A DNA stretch of 64,000 nt from Dehalococcoidia bacterium (GTDB lineage: Bacteria; Chloroflexota; Dehalococcoidia; Lucifugimonadales; UBA1123). Under the pieces are notes generated by a model. That model was not told the DNA's origin. It saw nothing but the letters and a program-made list of their open reading frames with translations, and did not search any database. The position numbers and the translations under genes were made by a program. The DNA lies in contig OZ253472.1 of assembly GCA_965261525.1 (NCBI GenBank), positions 3,596,488 through 3,660,487 of the forward strand, in the 5' to 3' direction. Within the stretch, counting starts at the first letter, position 1. Every line of letters starts with the position of its first letter. Shown here piece after piece: positions 49,038 to 59,084 of the stretch.

Positions 49038-49785
49038 TACAATCGAGCCAGTGGCTTTGTGTCGCGATTCGATCATGATCGCTGACGCCCCGTCTCCCCG
49101 CTCGCATCGAACCAGGGAAAGTGTCGAGGCTGAGGTCCTGTACGGAGTCCTGGTAGTTGAAGGAAGAGACGAGTAGTCGCATCTAGAGCCGATGTAAACC
49201 CCCGTAGCTGAAGGCGCGGTTATCCGGAATTCATAATCACTGGGATCTACGCCATATGGGCCGTTGATCTCGATGCGAACCTTCAATGATTTCAGAATCA
49301 ACCAATATTTCGCATACTTTATCAAGCTCGATTCGATGGAGGTGGGTGGACTCTCACCGTCTATATAAGCAATCTTCGCGTGTATTTGCAACTGGGAAAC
49401 GGGCGTCGGAACCGGAGTCGGTGGAACCGGAGTGTTGGTCGGTGGCGGTCTGCGCGTTGGCGTGGGCCTGGGCGTGTAGGTGGCTGTCGGCACAGGCGTG
49501 TTGGTCGGCGTGGGCCTTGGGGTGCGTGTAGGTGCGTGTGTCTTGGTCGCCGTAGGACACAGATGGGGGAAATCCTCGCAGAAGCACGCGTCGCATTCGC
49601 CTTCAGGCCCCTCCTCCCGCTCAGAGCCATCAGAAGCCGGGGGAGTAAGGGTGGGAGCAATCTGAGGTGTGGGTCGCTGTCGACTCAGGCGTTTGCGCTA
49701 TTGCCCCCTGGCTGAGGACCACTGCCAGAATCAGCCCGAAGATACCCCCAATAACCGTAACAAGCCTGATATTCATGCCTGACAT
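49038..49785 (-). pseudogene. Secreted Pro/Thr-rich protein gene, frameshifted and 3'-truncated by IS21
   Basis: The signal-peptide ORF from 49785 (MSGMNIRLVTVIGGIFGLILAVVLSQGAIAQ) stops after 51 codons. The +1 frame continues with a Cys-rich plus PTPT linker and a beta-rich domain (ORF 49020..49493) that runs into the IS end. Confidence 0.4.
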
Positions 49786-50198: not shown

Positions 50199-51410
50199 TT
50201 GGGGAGACGTCCGGTGAAAATAACCGACCTGAAACTACGGGAACTAAACGGCGTGATGGAGCGCCCTGACCCCTTCTGGGAAGAACGGCTTGTCAGGCCG
50301 CAGGACATCTACCCGGAGTACAGGAAGCAGGGCGCGGACTACTCGACAAGCCTGGGCAGCGGACGCTACGCGATGCGCTCCGTCTTTCTGGAGATACACA
50401 CCGACGACGGCGTGGTGGGGCTGTCCGGCCCTTGCTCCCGGATCGAGGCTTTCATTATAGACACCGCGCTGAGGCCGCTGCTTATGGGGAATGACCCACT
50501 GGCTATCGAGCGGCTGTGGGACGTGATGTATCGCTCCATGATCCACGGTCGCAAGGGCGAGACGATGATGGCGATAAGCGTCGTGGACTGCGGACTGTGG
50601 GATCTGAAGGGCAAGGCGCTGGGACAGCCGGTGTACAGGCTGTTGGGCGGGCCGACGCGCACCCGCTTCCCCGCATACGCCAGCGCGCTGGGGTTCTCGA
50701 TAGAGCCGGAGGCCGCCGCGGAACGCGCGAAGTGGATAGTGAGCCAAGGATACACGGCTACCAAGTGGTTCTTCAGGGACGGACCCACGGACGGGCGCGA
50801 CGGCGAGCGCAGGAATCTCACTCTGGCGCGGACGCTCAGGGATGCGGTCGGTGACGACGTGGACATCATGCTAGACGCCTGGAGCTCCTGGAACGTTCCC
50901 TACGCCATCCGAATGTCCAACCGGCTCGCCGAGTACAACATCCGGTGGCTGGAGGAACCTGTGCTGGCCGACAAGCTCGACAGCTACGCGGAGATCCGCC
51001 GCAACTCGCCGATAGACATTTCAGGCGGCGAACACGAGTACACCCGCTGGGGGTTCAGGCAGATCGTCGAGAAGCGCGCGATGGACGTGCTTCAGCCGGA
51101 CATCTACTGGTGCGGCGGCATAAGCGAGACCCTGAAGATATGCGCCCTGGCGTCGGCGTTCGACCTGCCGGTAATACCTCACGGCCACAGTTCGCACGCC
51201 ACCGCGCACCTGATAGCGTCTCAGCCGCCGACGACCACGCCTATCCAGGAATTCCTGCTAAAGTGGAACGCTGTCCACCAGTTCTTCCTGAAGTACCCGC
51301 TCGTTCCGGTTGACGGGACGATCACCGTGCCGGACTCCCCTGGCCTGGGCCTCGAGATAGACGAATCCAAGGTGGATTCGAGCCGGGAACTGAATTTCAG
51401 GAATATCTAG
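50199..51410 (+). CDS. Enolase-superfamily enzyme (mandelate racemase / sugar-acid dehydratase type)
   Basis: VKITDLKLREL...AISVVDCGLWDLKGKALGQPVYRLLGG...DIMLDAW...WLEEP...GGEHEY. Confidence 0.8.
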   Translation: MGRRPVKITDLKLRELNGVMERPDPFWEERLVRPQDIYPEYRKQGADYSTSLGSGRYAMRSVFLEIHTDDGVVGLSGPCSRIEAFIIDTALRPLLMGNDPLAIERLWDVMYRSMIHGRKGETMMAISVVDCGLWDLKGKALGQPVYRLLGGPTRTRFPAYASALGFSIEPEAAAERAKWIVSQGYTATKWFFRDGPTDGRDGERRNLTLARTLRDAVGDDVDIMLDAWSSWNVPYAIRMSNRLAEYNIRWLEEPVLADKLDSYAEIRRNSPIDISGGEHEYTRWGFRQIVEKRAMDVLQPDIYWCGGISETLKICALASAFDLPVIPHGHSSHATAHLIASQPPTTTPIQEFLLKWNAVHQFFLKYPLVPVDGTITVPDSPGLGLEIDESKVDSSRELNFRNI

Positions 51411-51438
51411 CAAAACGCCGGCTGACCCCCATGATAAG

Positions 51439-54400
51439 ATGCGCACTCAGTCAAGGGAAGTAGGCAACATGGTCGCTTCAGCCCGGTTCCGTCAGTACAT
51501 CAAAGACATCCAGGATAACCTCAAACTCGGCAGCGCCACCGAGCATACACATAGGCCCGCATTCAAAGCGCTTCTCGAATCCGCCTACGACGGCATTACA
51601 GCGACCAACGAACCGGGCAGAATAGAGTGCGGCGCGCCCGACTTCTCCATCAGCAAGGGCGACGCCCCTGGGCAGGTTACCATTGGCTACATTGAGGCGA
51701 AGGACGTCGGTGTTGACCTGTATGCTATAGAACGCGACAGTAACCGCGCCAATCCGACCACGCCTAACGGGAAGCAGTTGAAGCGATACCGACAGGCGCT
51801 TCCCAACCTGATTCTCACCAACTACACCGAATTCCGCTGGTACTCGGACAGCGAACTCCGCGTGACCGCCGCGCTTACTGAACACAGCGACGCTGCTTTG
51901 TCTGTCAGCAATGACGGCGTTTCCAAGACCGATGATCTGCTGTCTGCTTTTCTTGTCCACTCCCCTGAACTCGTATCCAACCCCAGAGACCTTGCCGAGC
52001 GTATGGCCAGACTTACTCACATGATACGAGACATAGTTCGAGAGGGGATGAGCAAAGAGCGATCATCTCAAGATGTCAACGACCTGTATCAGGCGGCAAG
52101 AGAAGCGCTGGTTCCCAATCTGACGCTGGACGACTTCGCCGACATGTTCGCTCAAACTCTCGCCTACGGCCTGTTTGCCGCCAGAGTAAACCACGATTCC
52201 GGCAGCTTCCACAGGCGGGACGCCGTTTACGACATTCCCGCCGCCAATCCGTTCCTGCGCCAGATATTCAACCTGACCGCTGGACCGAACGCGGAGAACG
52301 AACCATTCATCGGATTCGTGGACGACCTCGCCCAGCTTCTCGCGAACTCCGATATGGAAGCGATACTCGCCGACTTTGGCAAGCGCGACGTTCGTCAGGA
52401 CCCTGTGATGCACTTCTACGAGACCTTTCTCGCCGCCTACGATCCTGAACTTCGTGAGCGTCGCGGCGTGTACTACACCCCGGAGCCTGTCATATCCTAT
52501 ATAGTCCGCTCGGTTGACATCCTTCTCAAAGAACGCTTCGGATGCGCGGAGGGCCTCGCGGACTACCAGCAGGCGGAGTATGAAGTCCTTGAACAGGTGG
52601 ATGGGGAGCAGCAGAAAGTCACGAAACAGGCGCACCGCGTACTTGTACTCGACCCCGCCTGTGGAACGGGATCATTTCTCTACGCGGTCATTGACCACAT
52701 ACGCCAATACTATCGAGATAACGGCAACGCTGGAATGTGGAACGGCTATGTTCGAGAACATCTGCTGAATCGCGTTTTCGGGTTTGAGCTGATGATGGCC
52801 CCCTACGCGATGAGCCACCTGAAACTTGGTATGCAACTTGCCGCTCAGGATATGCCGGAAGATGTGCGAAATGAATGGTCGTATGAATTTGGAGACGACG
52901 AGCGACTCGGCGTGTACCTGACCAACTCTCTTGAGCAGGCGGAACAGCAGACAACCACGTTGTTCGGTCCAATGCGAGCTATCACCGATGAAGCGAACGC
53001 CGCGTCCGAGATAAAGCGTGACCTGCCCATCATGGTCGTATTGGGCAACCCGCCCTATTCGGGCCATTCGTCCAACGCCAGTAGGCGGGGCCGGAAACTC
53101 ACCTGGATAGGCGAACTTATCGAGGACTACAAGAAAGTTGATGGAAAGCCGCTTGGTGAGAAGAATCCAAAGTGGCTCCAGGATGACTATGTGAAGTTCA
53201 TACGTTTCGGACAGTGGCGCATCAGTCAGTCCGGCGCGGGCATATTGGCGTTCATCACCAACAACGGCTATCTGGATAACCCTACGTTCAGGGGTATGCG
53301 ACAGCAGCTTATGGACACATTCGCGGATATATACCTGCTTGACTTGCACGGCAATTCCAATAAAAAGGAGAGTACCCCGGACGGCGGCTCTGACCAGAAT
53401 GTGTTCGACATACAGCAGGGCGTCTCGATTGCCATATTCGTCAGAGAACCGGGAAATTCCGGACCTGCGAAGGTTCACCATGCTGACCTATGGGGAGACC
53501 GGGCGACCAAGTACTCGGTACTGGAAGAATCGGATGTGTCAACTACCAATTGGGAACTCCTGGAGCCTGTCTCACCCAGATATAGGTTCAGACCTTGGGA
53601 AGATGAGTTTGAAGATGAGTATCTCCGGTGGCCCACAATCAGAGAAGTCATGCCAATCAACTCGTCAGGCGTCACAACGGCACGAGACAAATTGACCATT
53701 CGATGGTCCCGGGATGAAATGATGAGTGTGGTCCGTGACTTCTCTGGACGTGAGCCAGAAGATGCTCGGAACAAGTATAAATTACCTAAGGACGTTCGAG
53801 ATTGGAAAGTTCATTGGGCGCAGGCCGATCTGAAAGAAGCGGGCATTGACGAAGATTTAGTAAAGCCTGTCTTGTATAGACCATTCGACACTCGATACAC
53901 GTACTATACAGGCAAGACTCGCGGTTTCATTTGTAGGCCACGCTCCCAAGTCATGCGGCATATGCTGACCGGCGACAATCTAGGATTATCAACAACACGT
54001 TCAATCGAAATACAGTCGGGTTTCGAGCATATCTTTGTCAGTAAAGACATCACGCAGCTTCACACTGTTTCAATTAAAGAAGTGAACTATCTATACCCTC
54101 TCTACACCTACCCTTCGGAACAGGAAATCGCCCAGGGTCTTTACGAGGCCGGAGAGCGGCAGCCAAATCTTGCTCCTAAATTCATCGAGGATTTAGAACA
54201 GCGGCTTGGCTTGCGATTTGTCAGCGACAGCGAAGGCAATCTGAGAGAAACATTCGGCCCTGAGGATGTCTTATACTACATCTACGCAGTCTTCCATTCG
54301 CCTACCTATCGAGAGCGTTACGACCAGTTCCTTCGCTCCGACTTTCCCCGCGTCCCTGTCCCCAACACGCCTGATTTGTTTCAGGCGCTTGCAAAGATTG

Positions 54401-54816
54401 GCCGAAGACTCACCGACGCTCACCTAATGAATTCTGCTGCGCCAAGCCCGTCTCCAATCAGATTCCCCGTAACGGGCGACAACATAATCGAGAAAGCGCA
54501 TCCCAAATACTACGCCCCGGGAGAAAAAACTCCGGGCGTCGAGTCGTCTCTTGAGCGCGGCAGGGTCTATATCAGCAAAAACAACCGACGCTCCGGCAAG
54601 CGTGGTCAGTATTTCGATGGCATAACGCCGGAGGTATGGGGATTTCGCGTTGGCGGCTACCAGCCCATGGACAAGTGGCTTAAGGACCGCAAGGGGAGAA
54701 CGCTGACCTTCGATGACCAAGAGCATTACCGGCGCATATCCGCATCCATTGAGGAGACAATTCGGCTCATGCAAGCTGTGGACGATGCGATAGCGGAGAA
54801 TGGCGGGCTGTGGTAG
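51439..54816 (+). CDS. Single-chain Type IIG-like restriction-modification enzyme
   Basis: The domain order is: candidate PD-ExK nuclease, gamma-class N6-adenine methyltransferase, and a Type ISP/YeeA-like C-terminal specificity region. Supporting sequence: APDF-x17-IEAK (~51628..51708); DPACGTGSFL (~52650..52680); GNPPYSG (~53044..53064); C-terminal YIYAVFHSPTYRERYDQFLRSDFPRVP and GGYQPMDKWLKDRKGR. The start is possibly Met 51469. Confidence 0.75.
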   Translation: MRTQSREVGNMVASARFRQYIKDIQDNLKLGSATEHTHRPAFKALLESAYDGITATNEPGRIECGAPDFSISKGDAPGQVTIGYIEAKDVGVDLYAIERDSNRANPTTPNGKQLKRYRQALPNLILTNYTEFRWYSDSELRVTAALTEHSDAALSVSNDGVSKTDDLLSAFLVHSPELVSNPRDLAERMARLTHMIRDIVREGMSKERSSQDVNDLYQAAREALVPNLTLDDFADMFAQTLAYGLFAARVNHDSGSFHRRDAVYDIPAANPFLRQIFNLTAGPNAENEPFIGFVDDLAQLLANSDMEAILADFGKRDVRQDPVMHFYETFLAAYDPELRERRGVYYTPEPVISYIVRSVDILLKERFGCAEGLADYQQAEYEVLEQVDGEQQKVTKQAHRVLVLDPACGTGSFLYAVIDHIRQYYRDNGNAGMWNGYVREHLLNRVFGFELMMAPYAMSHLKLGMQLAAQDMPEDVRNEWSYEFGDDERLGVYLTNSLEQAEQQTTTLFGPMRAITDEANAASEIKRDLPIMVVLGNPPYSGHSSNASRRGRKLTWIGELIEDYKKVDGKPLGEKNPKWLQDDYVKFIRFGQWRISQSGAGILAFITNNGYLDNPTFRGMRQQLMDTFADIYLLDLHGNSNKKESTPDGGSDQNVFDIQQGVSIAIFVREPGNSGPAKVHHADLWGDRATKYSVLEESDVSTTNWELLEPVSPRYRFRPWEDEFEDEYLRWPTIREVMPINSSGVTTARDKLTIRWSRDEMMSVVRDFSGREPEDARNKYKLPKDVRDWKVHWAQADLKEAGIDEDLVKPVLYRPFDTRYTYYTGKTRGFICRPRSQVMRHMLTGDNLGLSTTRSIEIQSGFEHIFVSKDITQLHTVSIKEVNYLYPLYTYPSEQEIAQGLYEAGERQPNLAPKFIEDLEQRLGLRFVSDSEGNLRETFGPEDVLYYIYAVFHSPTYRERYDQFLRSDFPRVPVPNTPDLFQALAKIGRRLTDAHLMNSAAPSPSPIRFPVTGDNIIEKAHPKYYAPGEKTPGVESSLERGRVYISKNNRRSGKRGQYFDGITPEVWGFRVGGYQPMDKWLKDRKGRTLTFDDQEHYRRISASIEETIRLMQAVDDAIAENGGLW

Positions 54817-54880
54817 ATTTTACATAGAGACTGAGTTTCGCAATGAGGATGGCTACATTTACCACAGAGGGAGTAAAGGC

Positions 54881-55066
54881 ATGGATGCTAAGCAACTAGA
54901 CGACAATTACCTGAAGACGCTGGAAGAGACCAAAAAGCAATATCAGCAGTATGTGGAAGTCAGTAAGCTCTATGAGTTGCCAACCAAACAAGATGAAACT
55001 CAAGTGCAGTATCGTATCCCTAGCCTCCAACATCCCTTGACGACGAACAGAATTCGCACAAACTGA
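54881..55066 (+). CDS. 61-aa hypothetical protein
   Basis: A GGAG-type site lies upstream of the ATG at 54881. The protein is a charged helical peptide (MDAKQLDDNYLKTLEETKKQYQQYVEVSKLYEL) in AT-rich context. Confidence 0.4.
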   Translation: MDAKQLDDNYLKTLEETKKQYQQYVEVSKLYELPTKQDETQVQYRIPSLQHPLTTNRIRTN

Positions 55067-55079
55067 AATGGAGTCGTAA

Positions 55080-56037
55080 ATGCCTTCATGGAGCGACCTT
55101 CTTTCGGAATTCCAGAATCATCAGAACGAACCTGGTTGGTTGGATAAGCGGCTCACAGAGCGCTTGACCTCTATATCAGAACGTCGCGATGGAGCCTGCG
55201 TCCATTTTGTATGCTTCGGCTTTCCTGCAAAAACCCAGGGGCGAAGTTTCCATAACCAGAGAAGATATGAATGGCTTCATGAATGCGTTGTATGAAGCCT
55301 CGACAGAACAGGGGCTGGTTCTGATATTGCATACGCCCGGCGGTGACCCGAATGCTGTTGAGAGCATAGTAGAATACCTGCACTCCAAATTTCACCGAAT
55401 CGCAACTATTGTCCCATATCTTGCTATGTCCGGCGGCGCGATGATGAGCTTGGCGAGCGACCTGCTGATACTTGGTAAGCAGAGCCAGCTAGGTCCTACG
55501 GATCCACAAATTCAGATAGGCAATGCGGGTTCCTATTCTGCTAGGGCAATTCAAGAAGGCTTCAGCAAGGCAAGAGAGGACATTGAAAAGGATATCAAGC
55601 TAGCCCACCTTTGGGCTCCCATCTTGCAGAACATGGGACCGTCTCTCGCTTTGGAGTCCGAAAAGGCCCTGTCTTACAGCAAAGGATTGGTAACCAAGTG
55701 GTTGCGTAAGAGATGTCTTATTGGGGATGGGGCGGACAGTAAAGCCGAGACCATCGCTGCCTACTTCAACGCGGAACCTTCGACCAAGCATGGCCAGGTT
55801 TATGTGCATGGTCAAAGAATCGGAACGGAAAAACTCGCTGAACTTGGTATTGACATAGAATATCTTGAGAATGACCAGAGCCTGCAAGACGATGTTCTAA
55901 CCACGTATCACCTGATGACCCTGATTTTTGAAACAGGCCCCTCCGTAAAATTCATCGCAAGCGACAAAGGAAAGATGTGGGCTAAGGAGCAGCTTCAAAG
56001 ACAGGTCTCTGATTCCGAACAGGAACCTGTCGAATAG
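55080..56037 (+). pseudogene. SDH-family ClpP-fold serine protease, split by a 1-nt frameshift near codon 38
   Basis: ORF 55080 (MPSWSDLLSEF...LTSISERRDGA) and ORF 55189 (..SILYASAFLQKP...LILHTPGGDPNAVESIV...AMSGGAMMSLASDLLILG...LGPTDPQI) read as one protein if one base is removed at about 55195..55205. The catalytic core is intact from Met 55189. Confidence 0.65.
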
Positions 56038-56058
56038 AGTGAACGCGCATAGTGAGCT

Positions 56059-56301
56059 TCACCCCCCACCCATCCGCCGAAGCCGCTCCCTGAGCCTCGC
56101 CACCTCCGCTTCAGCTTCAGCCGCCCGACTTTCAGCAGCCTCACTCACGGCTTGTTCTTTCTGAAGAAGGCTTCTGGCAGCCTCAAGCTCATCCTCCAAC
56201 CCATACACGCGCGCTTCCAAGTCGTCCATTGGATCTGGTAACGGTTCCAAGTGAGTATAGTCAGGGGTATGTGGCAGTTCAGATTGATTCCCGGCGGCCA
56301 T
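56059..56301 (-). CDS. 80-aa coiled-coil protein
   Basis: DDLEARVYGLEDELEAARSLLQKEQAVSEAAESRAAEAEAEVARLRERLRR. It resembles the tails of the two Uma2 proteins. Confidence 0.35.
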   Translation of the reverse strand: MAAGNQSELPHTPDYTHLEPLPDPMDDLEARVYGLEDELEAARSLLQKEQAVSEAAESRAAEAEAEVARLRERLRRMGGG

Positions 56302-56444
56302 GGTTAGCTTCTCCGTTTAGCGGTGATTAAAGACTCCCCGTCTGTCAAAAATCATAACACAGACCTCTGATCCCCATAGTCACCTTCCAAGGCTGTCCCA
56401 GCCTGTCTCCATATTCCCAATTTCGCTACGCATCTAGTCCCCTA

Positions 56445-56665
56445 TTCTGCTACAATCCTCGTATGCCAAACGAAAACCGACAATTCACGAACAATCACTA
56501 TGAACCATAAATCCACGGTTATAAATGAGAGCGGGCAACCGCAAAAAACCCTCTAAACTGGTGAATACAGGTCTATACAGGTGATATGCAGGTACCAGAC
56601 CCCTCCAGCAGGCCACTTGCAGACCGCCTGCACAGCCACCAGTAATCGCACTGATATATAAGTCC
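56445..56665 (-). repeat. Family C scaffold, diverged copy (minus orientation)
   Basis: The reverse complement carries TTATATAT, three phased words (CCTGCAT/CCTGTAT/CCTGTAT; plus-strand ATACAGG at 56565 and 56575, ATGCAGG at 56586), CAGTTTAGAGGG, ATTTATGGTT and ATTGTAGCAG. Confidence 0.6.
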
Positions 56666-56687
56666 ACGTAAATGGCAAAGACTGAAA

Positions 56688-57803
56688 TTGAAGATCACCG
56701 ACGTTAAGATAGAAGTAGTCCGCCGAACCCTGCCCGACACCGGGCTCGACTCCGACCTGGGTCGCTTCTCTGGCGATGTCGAGCAGGGTATGCTGCGCAT
56801 CATGACCGACGAGGGCATAGAGGGCAACTGCTTCATCGGCGACTTCAGAGGCGGCGGACACGGGCAGTTCGGTCCCATTCTCAACGTCCTCAAGCCCGAA
56901 ATACTTGGCCGCGACCCGTTCGAGCGCGAACGCCTGTGGAGTCGTCTGCCCATCCTCAGCGGACGGCGCGGATTGAGCATGAACGCCTGGGCCCCCGTGG
57001 ACGTGGCGCTGTGGGACATCGCGGGCAAGGCCGCCGGAGTTCCCGTGTACAAGCTGCTCGGCGCCAGCCGCGACGAGACCGAGGTTTACGCCACCTACCC
57101 GCCGCGACACGAGACCTCGCAGGGTTACTTCGGAGAGGCGCATCAGATACGCGCCGCCGGATTCCGCGCCTACAAGATACACCCGGGTGTCATGGACACC
57201 GCCGCCGTCTTCGAGATGATGGCCGGCGTGAGGGACGTCGTTGGCGACGATATGGAGCTTATGCTCGACCCCAACAACGGCTACGACTTTCGCAAGGCGC
57301 TGGACGTGGGAAGCGCGGCGGACGACCTCGGCTTCTACTGGTACGAGGACCCAATCCCGCCCCACGAATACGACAACATCGCCGAACTCAGCAGGCGTCT
57401 CCTCACTCCAATCTGTATGAGCGACAAGCCTGAGAACCAGTTCCAGACCGGCTATCACTACATCCGTCTCAAGGCGCTGAGGCTCGTGCGCGGCACTGCC
57501 AGAAAGCTCGGCATCACCGGCCTGAAGAAACTCTGCTCCATGGCCGAGGGATTCGGGATGAACTGCGAGATCGGCACGGCTGGCAATTCGCTGCTCAATA
57601 TAGCCAACCTTCATGTGATCTGCTCTGTGCGGAACTGCGCCTACTACGAGTACTGGATGCCGACCGAGGCGCACCAGTTCGGCCTGGTCGAGGACATTAA
57701 GCTGAACGAGCGCGGCGTTCTCGAAGCGCCGACCGCTCCCGGGCTGGGTTTCGAGCTCGACTGGAATTGGATCAACGCCCACAGGGTAGCCACCCTGGAT
57801 TAG
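56688..57803 (+). CDS. Enolase-superfamily enzyme (mandelate racemase/muconate-lactonizing type), second paralog
   Basis: MKITDVKIEVV...APVDVALWDIAGKAAGVPVYKLLG...LMLDPNNGY...WYEDP. Confidence 0.8.
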   Translation: MKITDVKIEVVRRTLPDTGLDSDLGRFSGDVEQGMLRIMTDEGIEGNCFIGDFRGGGHGQFGPILNVLKPEILGRDPFERERLWSRLPILSGRRGLSMNAWAPVDVALWDIAGKAAGVPVYKLLGASRDETEVYATYPPRHETSQGYFGEAHQIRAAGFRAYKIHPGVMDTAAVFEMMAGVRDVVGDDMELMLDPNNGYDFRKALDVGSAADDLGFYWYEDPIPPHEYDNIAELSRRLLTPICMSDKPENQFQTGYHYIRLKALRLVRGTARKLGITGLKKLCSMAEGFGMNCEIGTAGNSLLNIANLHVICSVRNCAYYEYWMPTEAHQFGLVEDIKLNERGVLEAPTAPGLGFELDWNWINAHRVATLD

Positions 57804-57866: not shown

Positions 57867-59084
57867 ATGGTCGGTGGCGCGGTCGTCAGCCTGTTTGCGT
57901 GGATGGGAGTCAGTCAGGCCGCGGCCGGAGTGTTCCTCAAGCCGGTCGTGGATGATCTTGGCTGGCAGGTCTGGCAATTCACGCTCGGCGCTTCACTCGC
58001 TTCGGGCGCGGGCGGACTTTCGGGTGTATTCGCGGGATCCATAGTTGACAAGCGCGGTCCGCGACTTCTGATCCTTGTCGGGGCGCTGGTTGCCGCCGCC
58101 TGCCTGATCGGTCTGAGCAGACAGTCCCACCTATGGATGTTCCTCGTCTTGTACACCGTCGGGGGACTCTTTGGGTGGAGCCTGTTTAGCTCGACCGTCA
58201 TAAACCCCACGATTACCAAGTGGTTCATCAGGAAGCGCGGATGGGCGCTGGCATTGGGTTCGATAGGCGTGTCCATGGCCGGACTCATCGCGCCGGTGAC
58301 CATGACCTTCATCGTGGACACCTGGAACTGGAGAGTGGGCTACGCCGTGATGGGGGTGTTCGTACTTGTTGCCGTCGTTCCTGTGTCTTTCATTATGCGG
58401 CGGACGCCCGAGGACCACGGCCTTCTGCCCGACGGCGATTCATCCGATCTGGCTGTTCAATTCAATCAACCCACGCGAGCCGTCGAGACTCCTTCCTTCA
58501 CTCGCTGGGAGGCAGTCCGCACGAGTGGGTTCTGGCTGCTGTTGATCGGATTCGCATTCAATATGGCTGCTCTCATCTCCGTTCTGGTCCACGCCATCCC
58601 GCTCCTCACCGACTCGGGATTCTCCAGGACGATAGCGGCCTCCGCGCTTGCGGTCAACGGGCTTGGCAACCTGGCATCCAAGGCGGCGTGGGGCTACGGA
58701 CTCCAGCGAGTCCATCCACGCCTGCTCGTGATAACCGCGTTCATGATCTCGGCCGCCGGCGTCATCCTGATACTGATCGCCACCGCCACAGGACTCTACA
58801 TCGTCCTGTTCCCCGCGTTCTTCATGTACGGCTTCGGGTTCGGAGGAACCATACCATTGGGCGAGTTCACCTGGGCGAAGTATTTCGGCAGGCGTCACAT
58901 CGGAGCTATTCGAGGCATCGGAAACCCGGTAGCGATCCTGTTCTCCGGCATCGGGCCCATACTGGTCGGCTTGTGGTTCGACATCGTGGGCGCGTATCAG
59001 CCCGCCTTCTTCGCCGTCATAGCGTCGTTCTTCGTGGGCGCCGCGCTTGTAGCAGTGTCGAGGGAGCCGCGCAAGGCGGAGTGA
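57867..59084 (+). CDS. MFS transporter
   Basis: 12 predicted helices with a D-K-R-G-P-R loop (IVDKRGPR). An in-frame YYGWW lies just upstream but without a start codon. Confidence 0.8.
   Translation: MVGGAVVSLFAWMGVSQAAAGVFLKPVVDDLGWQVWQFTLGASLASGAGGLSGVFAGSIVDKRGPRLLILVGALVAAACLIGLSRQSHLWMFLVLYTVGGLFGWSLFSSTVINPTITKWFIRKRGWALALGSIGVSMAGLIAPVTMTFIVDTWNWRVGYAVMGVFVLVAVVPVSFIMRRTPEDHGLLPDGDSSDLAVQFNQPTRAVETPSFTRWEAVRTSGFWLLLIGFAFNMAALISVLVHAIPLLTDSGFSRTIAASALAVNGLGNLASKAAWGYGLQRVHPRLLVITAFMISAAGVILILIATATGLYIVLFPAFFMYGFGFGGTIPLGEFTWAKYFGRRHIGAIRGIGNPVAILFSGIGPILVGLWFDIVGAYQPAFFAVIASFFVGAALVAVSREPRKAE

Follow-up and report, generated by a model that had tools for sequence, protein, structure and literature searches.

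FS_HP_SDH_sah is a two-gene DefenseFinder system composed of a hypothetical protein and an SDH_sah/PF01972 protein, and it reportedly derives, as an anti-phage system, from the work of Fillol-Salom et al. 2022 on phage-inducible chromosomal island (PICI)-encoded immunity. Second-line effectors associated with restriction-modification (RM) are found in PrrC-EcoprrI, where an abortive-infection anticodon nuclease is embedded in an RM locus, and in BREX type 1, where the PglX methyltransferase occurs together with the Lon-like BrxL. FS_HP_SDH_sah is attested, as a model name, in PMC13532340. Here, we analyzed a 64,000-nucleotide stretch (the window) of contig OZ253472.1 from a Dehalococcoidia bacterium (assembly GCA_965261525.1, positions 3,596,488 to 3,660,487), in which a gene for a single-chain Type IIG RM enzyme is followed by a small open reading frame (ORF) and by the gene for an SDH-type ClpP-fold serine protease, all three being located between two enolase-superfamily genes, eno1 and eno2 (Table 1). 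With a probability of roughly 0.6, we interpret this locus as two separable, horizontally acquired defence-type elements, an active Type IIG enzyme that swaps its specificity and an independent, decaying cassette of small ORF and protease gene in which the protease is broken.

The cassette resembles FS_HP_SDH_sah in that a small protein is encoded next to a co-oriented PF01972-type protein, with a gap of 13 nt between the small ORF and the protease start at 55080 in the window and of about 0-30 nt elsewhere, and both the system and the cassette family occur on mobile elements or in prophage-like contexts. By contrast, the window copy possesses a protease pseudogene, resides in a Dehalococcoidia metagenome-assembled genome (MAG) and has an RM gene directly upstream. 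The arrangement of a second-line effector co-oriented with an RM-type methyltransferase is shared with PrrC-EcoprrI and BREX type 1, but the effector here has a ClpP/SDH fold, unlike the anticodon nuclease and the Lon-like protein of those systems, and the majority of cassettes occur on their own. Finally, the protease has a ClpP-like fold signature in common with ClpP, SppA and NfeD (1510-N), although the matches are weak, and it differs from them by an extra helical C-terminal half of ~150 aa, by a conserved N-terminal helix pair and by having no stomatin partner, ClpX/ClpA partner or signal peptide region.

The initial annotation of the window had described a 1125-aa fused nuclease/methyltransferase/specificity enzyme, and this was confirmed as an intact Type IIG/IIL enzyme with the domain order of PD-ExK nuclease, gamma N6-adenine methyltransferase and Type-ISP-like target recognition domain. 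The single polypeptide matched the curated PADLOC model REase_MTase_IIG (PDLC03610) end to end (E 3.8e-271, residues 18-1115 on model positions 3-1073 of 1096), and its C-terminal recognition domain was recovered by Pfam Type_ISP_C (aa 736-1112, E 2.1e-90), while Pfam N6_Mtase scored over its cut-off and MmeI_Mtase and Eco57I slightly under theirs. The nuclease motif and methyltransferase motifs I and IV were all found (APDF...IEAK at aa 66-89, DPACGTGSF at aa 405 and NPPY at aa 537, respectively), and the nearest solved structures are DrdV (7LO5, E 1e-35), LlaBIII (4XQK) and LlaGI (5FFJ). The enzyme thus shares the PD-ExK nuclease, the gamma-class N6A methyltransferase with motif I and NPPY, and the C-terminal recognition domain with the Type IIL/IIG enzymes DrdV and MmeI. 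It has the Type_ISP_C domain in common with the Type ISP enzymes LlaGI and LlaBIII but lacks a helicase/translocase module. The enzyme would be expected to methylate the DNA of its host and to cleave DNA that lacks the modification.

A near-identical strain, L167 (ERZ25071051 contig_18), was located via the small protein and carries the same gene order as the window (eno1, RM gene, small ORF, protease gene, an 80-aa ORF, eno2 and a major facilitator superfamily (MFS) transporter gene). The nuclease part of the RM gene is 100% identical between the two strains, its final 400 nt are ~99% identical, and the rest of the gene and its flanks are 98-100% identical, whereas the segment for the recognition domain and for the C-terminal part of the methyltransferase before it (4780-6540 in L167) drops to 66-92% nucleotide identity with indels. 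Because the recognition segment diverges amid such conserved surroundings, the contrast looks like the signature of specificity swapping between strains in an RM enzyme under active use.

The protease gene presents a different picture. The initial annotation had quoted a 282-aa ORF for an SDH-family, ClpP-fold protease; the family assignment stood, but this ORF turned out to be the piece 3' of a +1 frameshift in a gene that starts at 55080. The piece scored 62.8 bits against PF01972 (gathering cut-off 31.3; profile positions 73-180 of 286), and the protease matched phrog_11747 over its full length (E 5e-63). Homologues are 302-336 aa long with the N-terminus MPSWSELL...RRDGACVILYASAF, and an intact one (P0001, 314 aa) is 92% identical. 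In the window, the frame from 55080 encodes MPSWSDLL...RRDGACV and the remainder is encoded in the next frame (ORF 55189-56037), owing to an extra C that reads GCGTCCATT in the window versus GCGT-CATT or GCGT-TGT in five homologues, such that residues 1-41 are cut off from the rest of the protein, which retains the Ser-containing MSGGAM motif. The L167 protease gene is ~99.5% identical to that of the window and does not have the extra C, but it contains a CAG>TAG change at codon 136 (7605-7607 of L167) that places a stop inside the invariant QSQLGP motif. Given that two independent inactivating mutations are found among only ~6 differences between the two genes, the protease gene is probably decaying in this lineage. 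Disrupted copies were also found in 6 of the 79 other family members from species-representative genomes, making ~8% of copies pseudogenes. Broken copies numbered 5 of 24 among RM-linked loci and 3 of 57 among unlinked ones (p ~0.05, counts not independent), and a link between RM presence and protease decay was taken as anecdotal.

The AlphaFold2 (AF2) model of the protease reached a pLDDT of 67, and Foldseek matched it weakly and only to ClpP (E ~0.02, TM 0.2-0.4). A PDB profile search returned nothing significant, with a weak sequence match to 3BPP, and NfeD1b_N in Pfam stayed below its cut-off while TIGR00706 (SppA) matched weakly. No catalytic-partner residues could be assigned from the pLDDT-67 model and the weak ClpP matches.

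The 61-aa ORF with its own ribosome-binding site, also proposed in the initial annotation, was verified at the true position listed in Table 1. It belongs to a family of 102 homologue clusters of 61-78 aa, none with a Pfam domain, in which an invariant helix, YLKTLEEVKKQYQQYVEV, is followed by an invariant PLTTN close to the C-terminus. In the AF2 model, the small protein forms a single long helix over residues 2-29 (pLDDT >90), and its tail is extended and unstructured. Between the window and L167 (7001-7186), the small ORF has changed at 6 of its 61 residues and at 12 nt in ~190, while the adjoining protease gene differs at ~6 of 960 nt, far fewer; either a local recombination patch or relaxed or positive selection on the small protein could account for this divergence.

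Species-representative genomes were scanned for the protease, which gave 80 loci, and in 41 of these tblastn detected the small ORF ending ~0-30 nt before the protease start. A hidden Markov model (HMM) built from those 41 recovered the upstream ORF in most of the remaining distant loci (protease 42-50% identical) and the cassette in one archaeal MAG contig. In IMG/VR, a small ORF was present at the matching position in 10 of 11 viral contigs, 5 of them scoring E<=0.03 with the HMM. On this comparative evidence, the small ORF and the protease gene are a genuine conserved two-gene unit. The protease is uncommon (168 clusters at 50% identity with E<=1e-30, out of 1.84 billion representatives), and it is ~70% identical in amino acid sequence across Dehalococcoidia, Latescibacterota, Binatia, Terriglobia, Nitrospirales, Flavobacteriales, Pseudomonadales and others, which points to its recent horizontal spread. 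Many cassette hosts belong to lineages that are characteristic of sponge symbionts, as in the case of Poriferihabitaceae and Spongiisocius. Annotated phage and plasmid homologues are full-length with ~32-34% identity and occupy accessory ("moron") positions (Table 1). The cassette thus displays the features of a toxin-antitoxin-like pair, namely a small upstream gene, tight linkage (gaps of ~0-20 nt), copies on prophages and plasmids and a patchy distribution. A search with the Klebsiella version gave zero DNA-level matches in E. coli genomes, and a description of the cassette was not found in the literature on PF01972, the SDH-family Clp fold and ClpP-like proteins in defence islands.

Two further arrangements were observed in this family. 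The E. coli plasmid pSM107_MCR (NZ_CP130669.1, 37653-38555; locus L179) encodes a distant 300-aa SDH-family protein directly downstream of, and co-oriented with, a lambdoid prophage cI-like repressor gene (the rexAB position), with a 56-aa ORF after it and a Ral anti-restriction gene nearby. In a Flavobacteriales MAG (L015), a second, inverted protease homologue of 321 aa is located ~2 kb upstream of the cassette, between the cassette and a DrmMI-like RM gene (~1368 aa).

That the RM gene and the cassette are separable is seen in L001 and L074. These two loci come from Dehalococcoidia MAGs and are syntenic with the window from ~50.1 to 64 kb at 80-87% nucleotide identity, a match that assigns the organism to this class. 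Both carry eno1, the small ORF, an intact protease gene, eno2 and the MFS gene, and the RM gene is absent. The window region of ~51438-54830, which comprises the RM ORF, corresponds to a ~190-bp spacer in each of them, and the region of the 80-aa ORF (56096-56412) is present in the window and L167 and absent from both. The initial annotation had regarded the DNA between the enolase genes as a single foreign insertion of ~5.2 kb; judged by these alignments, it is composite relative to the relatives, with only the above two segments missing from L001/L074 and the cassette kept. Alignment with relatives, recommended there for defining the ends of the insert, therefore bounded the RM and 80-aa-ORF segments, but the enolase genes were never found adjacent. 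An un-split eno1-eno2 arrangement occurred in none of 80 metagenome loci carrying eno2 relatives, and none of the eno2 orthologues in them (64-87% identity) had an eno1 orthologue, the cassette or the RM gene upstream. Lacking such a site, the idea that the insert split a sugar-acid catabolic unit stays unproven. When the spacers of L001 and L074 were aligned locally to the 5' and 3' ends of the RM gene, the scores stayed within the range of shuffled sequences, their homology being limited to the small-ORF leader, and since no significant RM remnant was seen there, the data fit either a gain or a loss of the RM gene. We found no meaningful repeats, direct or inverted, on the two sides of the segment, and promoter and terminator scans were at or under chance.

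The initial annotation had further raised a protease-coupled RM module. However, a full-length homologue of the Type IIG enzyme of the window was found near the protease in only 1 of the 80 loci (L034; 37% identity, downstream of the protease on the opposite strand), and the RM-cassette layout of the window was shared just with the same-species strain L167. With this RM family in 1/80 loci, no RM gene in L001/L074 and a broken protease, the module is not supported as a fixed three-gene system. The other possibility considered there, unrelated neighbours in a defence island, fits best, most cassettes being located in prophages or beside housekeeping genes.

Under the reading of two separable elements, the cassette would be an autonomous mobile unit, alone in most genomes and also inserted in prophage moron positions. 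The small protein would be co-made with the protease and bound to it via its helix, with the PLTTN tail docking on the protease as inhibitor, substrate or adaptor. A phage cue would then free or redirect the protease for cleavage of host or phage proteins, and the outcome would be toxin-antitoxin-like or abortive-infection-like. We infer the inhibitor or adaptor role from the gene order, the ~13-nt gap, the helix-plus-tail AF2 model and the invariant PLTTN. Because the protease is dead by frameshift, nothing but the RM enzyme and perhaps the small ORF would still be able to act in the window, and the three genes there would make up no working protease-coupled system.

Several observations weigh against this reading. 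Regarding family assignment, P0001 scored 74.8 bits against the NCBIfam equivalog NF047768 (Clp_like_SDH), whose cut-off is 250, and by this score the protease is a subfamily distinct from it. PADLOC v2.0 at E<=0.01 gave no match for the 282-aa, 71-aa and 88-aa products, and the PADLOC check suggested in the initial annotation thus identified the RM enzyme as REase_MTase_IIG and returned no model for the protease or the small ORF. In addition, the cassette, which matches FS_HP_SDH_sah by architecture and domain, is only a putative member of that system. The extra C at 55202/55203 could be an assembly error. Finally, RM genes are enriched on one side of the cassette. RM genes of the gamma-N6A-methyltransferase type were located within 5 kb upstream in 19/80 loci (18 co-oriented) versus 2/80 downstream (iterative phmmer; Fisher p 8e-5), and Pfam scans added upstream, co-oriented RM genes in L024, L026 and L049, resulting in a total of at least 22/80 upstream (21 on the same strand) versus 2/80 downstream (Fisher p ~9e-6), with the 80 loci not being phylogenetically independent. 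The co-occurrence of the protease or small ORF with RM genes elsewhere, which the initial annotation had asked about, is thus found for RM genes in general and not for the RM family of the window. The upstream RM genes span at least 7 architectures, namely a Type I-like M/S fusion accompanied by an HsdR-like helicase, an MmeI-like type, another IIG type, a DrmMI/Eco57I-like type of ~1340 aa, Mrr+ResIII, an N6_N4 methyltransferase and the window's own type. In 9 loci, no more than 300 nt separate the end of the RM gene from the small ORF, and no terminator-like site was found in the 64-nt gap between the RM stop codon and the small ORF of the window. Moreover, RM and protease divergence correlate across phyla in the Type I-like and DrmMI-like groups (r ~0.93), indicating that these RM blocks move together with the cassette, and this co-divergence is more in line with a functional link than with genes lying side by side purely by chance.

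We reasoned that such polarity could arise if the cassette were a functional RM accessory, for example a guard that senses RM inhibition or failure and responds, in a PrrC-like manner, by abortive infection through the protease, the window then being a decayed example. The polar association, the variety of unrelated RM architectures, the short distances, the co-divergence and the terminator-free gap keep this explanation alive. However, ~70% of cassettes have housekeeping or other neighbours and no RM gene nearby, phage and prophage copies stand alone without RM, and L001 and L074 possess an intact cassette with no RM gene. Furthermore, assorted defence genes such as mad3, AriA, AbiL and PDC candidates are among the downstream neighbours, which is what a generic defence island would show, and the counts carry the non-independence mentioned above. 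We therefore consider such an accessory role unlikely. A related proposal, that the cassette is a portable second layer behind many unrelated RM types, monitoring them through proteolytic abortive infection or controlling them, is equally tentative and would have to be called unlikely as well. In two Latescibacterota MAGs (L008 and L010), ORFs of 79-120 aa resembling the DrmMI/Eco57I-like RM protein lie immediately 5' of the small ORF, and the full RM gene is ~2 kb further upstream with other genes intervening; these short ORFs may be 3' remnants from insertions into an ancestral RM-cassette junction.

If the frameshift were an assembly or sequencing error, the protease would be intact in the organism and all three genes functional. 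Beyond the frameshift, the protease sequence contains no stop codon and shares 92% identity with the intact P0001, and single-base indels are the commonest error of long-read assemblies. However, the site is a CC dinucleotide and no long homopolymer, and the sister strain L167 bears its own independent CAG>TAG change in QSQLGP, so that 2 of the ~6 differences between the two genes inactivate. Together with the broken copies in six other species-representative genomes, this makes sequencing error a doubtful explanation.

Alternatively, the pair could simply be a toxin-antitoxin or addiction module, or else a selfish mobile cassette, without any role in phage defence, and its closeness to RM genes would then merely reflect shared variable islands. 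A small gene placed first with a tight gap, the recent horizontal spread at ~70% identity across phyla, the ~8% of pseudogene copies and neighbours such as RES-Xre, HicAB and insertion sequence (IS) elements would all agree with this. By contrast, random co-location in islands would not be expected to put RM genes so strictly upstream and on the same strand, and the architecture-matched FS_HP_SDH_sah is listed in DefenseFinder as an anti-phage system, leaving the addiction module improbable. Least probable is a restriction-alleviation or RM-control factor that would break down the restriction enzyme whenever the host's DNA lacks protection and ease the establishment of a new RM system, much as ClpXP acts on EcoKI HsdR in restriction alleviation: the ClpP-type fold, the co-oriented position downstream of many RM families and the co-transfer would suit it, but most cassettes have no RM partner, the partners are structurally unrelated and one protease would need many substrates, both RM-bearing strains lost the protease and kept an intact, diversifying RM enzyme, and prophage moron positions suit defence better.

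The flanking genes reported in the initial annotation were present in the ORF map and by Pfam (Table 1). The acid-sugar dehydratase-like eno1 had rhamnonate and galactonate dehydratase as its top NCBIfam matches, both under cut-off, and is 91% identical at the amino acid level to its L001/L074 orthologues, compared with 93% for eno2 and 82% for the MFS transporter. The convergent 80-aa coiled-coil ORF was also confirmed, with sub-threshold matches to DUF7310 and to an Ala-zipper (Lpp-like) lipoprotein family. It corresponds to 8178-8420 of L167, where it is called as a gene, and its segment stands in place of ~130 bp of L001. Because tblastn found zero homologues of it in the 80 protease loci, the 80-aa ORF was rejected as a member of the cassette or system. 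The AT-richer segment noted in the initial annotation was observed as a lower GC content, but the deviation reached only z = -1 to -2.7 (500-bp windows; mean 0.574, sd 0.049). Overall GC is 0.539 for the RM gene, 0.44 for the small ORF, 0.495 for the protease gene and 0.62 for both enolase genes, and the contrast with the flanks lies chiefly at third codon positions (GC3 of 0.62 for the RM gene and 0.53 for the small ORF, compared with 0.82 for both enolase genes).

Further differences were seen at both sides of this region. To the left of eno1 (~50100), the synteny with L001/L074 ends and L167 falls to 73-90% identity at 49044-49640, and because of this the region would represent a further variable junction. 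At ~59450, the window is without ~285 nt of L167 (11478-11762) inside a PIN-domain (VapC-like) gene 3' of the MFS gene. In L167, a 73-aa ORF precedes a PIN gene of 141 aa at this place, and the window seems to retain just a remnant of this PIN toxin-antitoxin pair.

Table 1. Features of the window in positional order, followed by protease homologues on phages, plasmids and other mobile elements.
Feature	Location	Strand	Basis or context
eno1, enolase-superfamily (MR_MLE), acid-sugar dehydratase-like, left flank	50199..51410	+	Pfam MR_MLE_N and MR_MLE_C
Intact single-chain Type IIG/IIL RM enzyme, 1125 aa	51439..54816	+	PADLOC, Pfam, motifs
Hypervariable RM segment (methyltransferase C-terminal part and recognition domain)	52641..54420	+	window versus L167
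61-aa partner protein of the protease	54881..55066	+	GGGAG 8-12 nt 5' of ATG; tblastn, HMM
SDH-type ClpP-fold serine protease gene, +1 frameshift, pseudogene in the window	55080..56037	+	PF01972, phrog_11747
Extra-C site, protease codon 41/42	55202..55203	+	DNA alignment with five homologues
80-aa Ala/Glu-rich coiled-coil ORF	56059..56301	-	convergent to RM gene, small ORF and protease gene; GGAG ribosome-binding site
eno2, second enolase-superfamily gene, right flank	56688..57803	+	Pfam MR_MLE
MFS transporter	57867..59084	+	Pfam MFS_1; in synteny with relatives
Protease homologue	Gordonia phage BeeGee gp31		accessory position
Protease homologue	Shewanella Mu-like phage		90-aa ORF upstream
Protease homologue	Porphyromonas prophages		beside HicAB
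Protease homologue	Klebsiella lambdoid prophage nin region		67-aa ORF upstream
Protease homologue	P. aeruginosa element		beside integrase
Protease homologue	Acidiphilium plasmid		beside RES-Xre pair; small ORF in matching place

Taken together, the result for the window is mainly a correction, replacing the proposed module by one working restriction enzyme and a dead copy of a separate two-gene cassette. The cassette is already catalogued, yet mechanistically unstudied. The comparative data define the family of its small partner, a single helix with an invariant PLTTN tail and no Pfam domain, and reveal a strongly polar association of the cassette with at least 7 unrelated RM architectures, and we regard this polar linkage to multiple RM families, as read from gene neighbourhoods, as a genuine lead. 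If the association is functional, it would provide a testable case in which restriction is backed by a layered protease effector, and the first mechanistic handle on the HP+SDH defence system. If the second-layer reading is true, RM-plus-protease would be a recurrent, unnamed composite defence architecture spreading among symbiont phyla, and the window and L167 would show the outcome of discarding its protease half.

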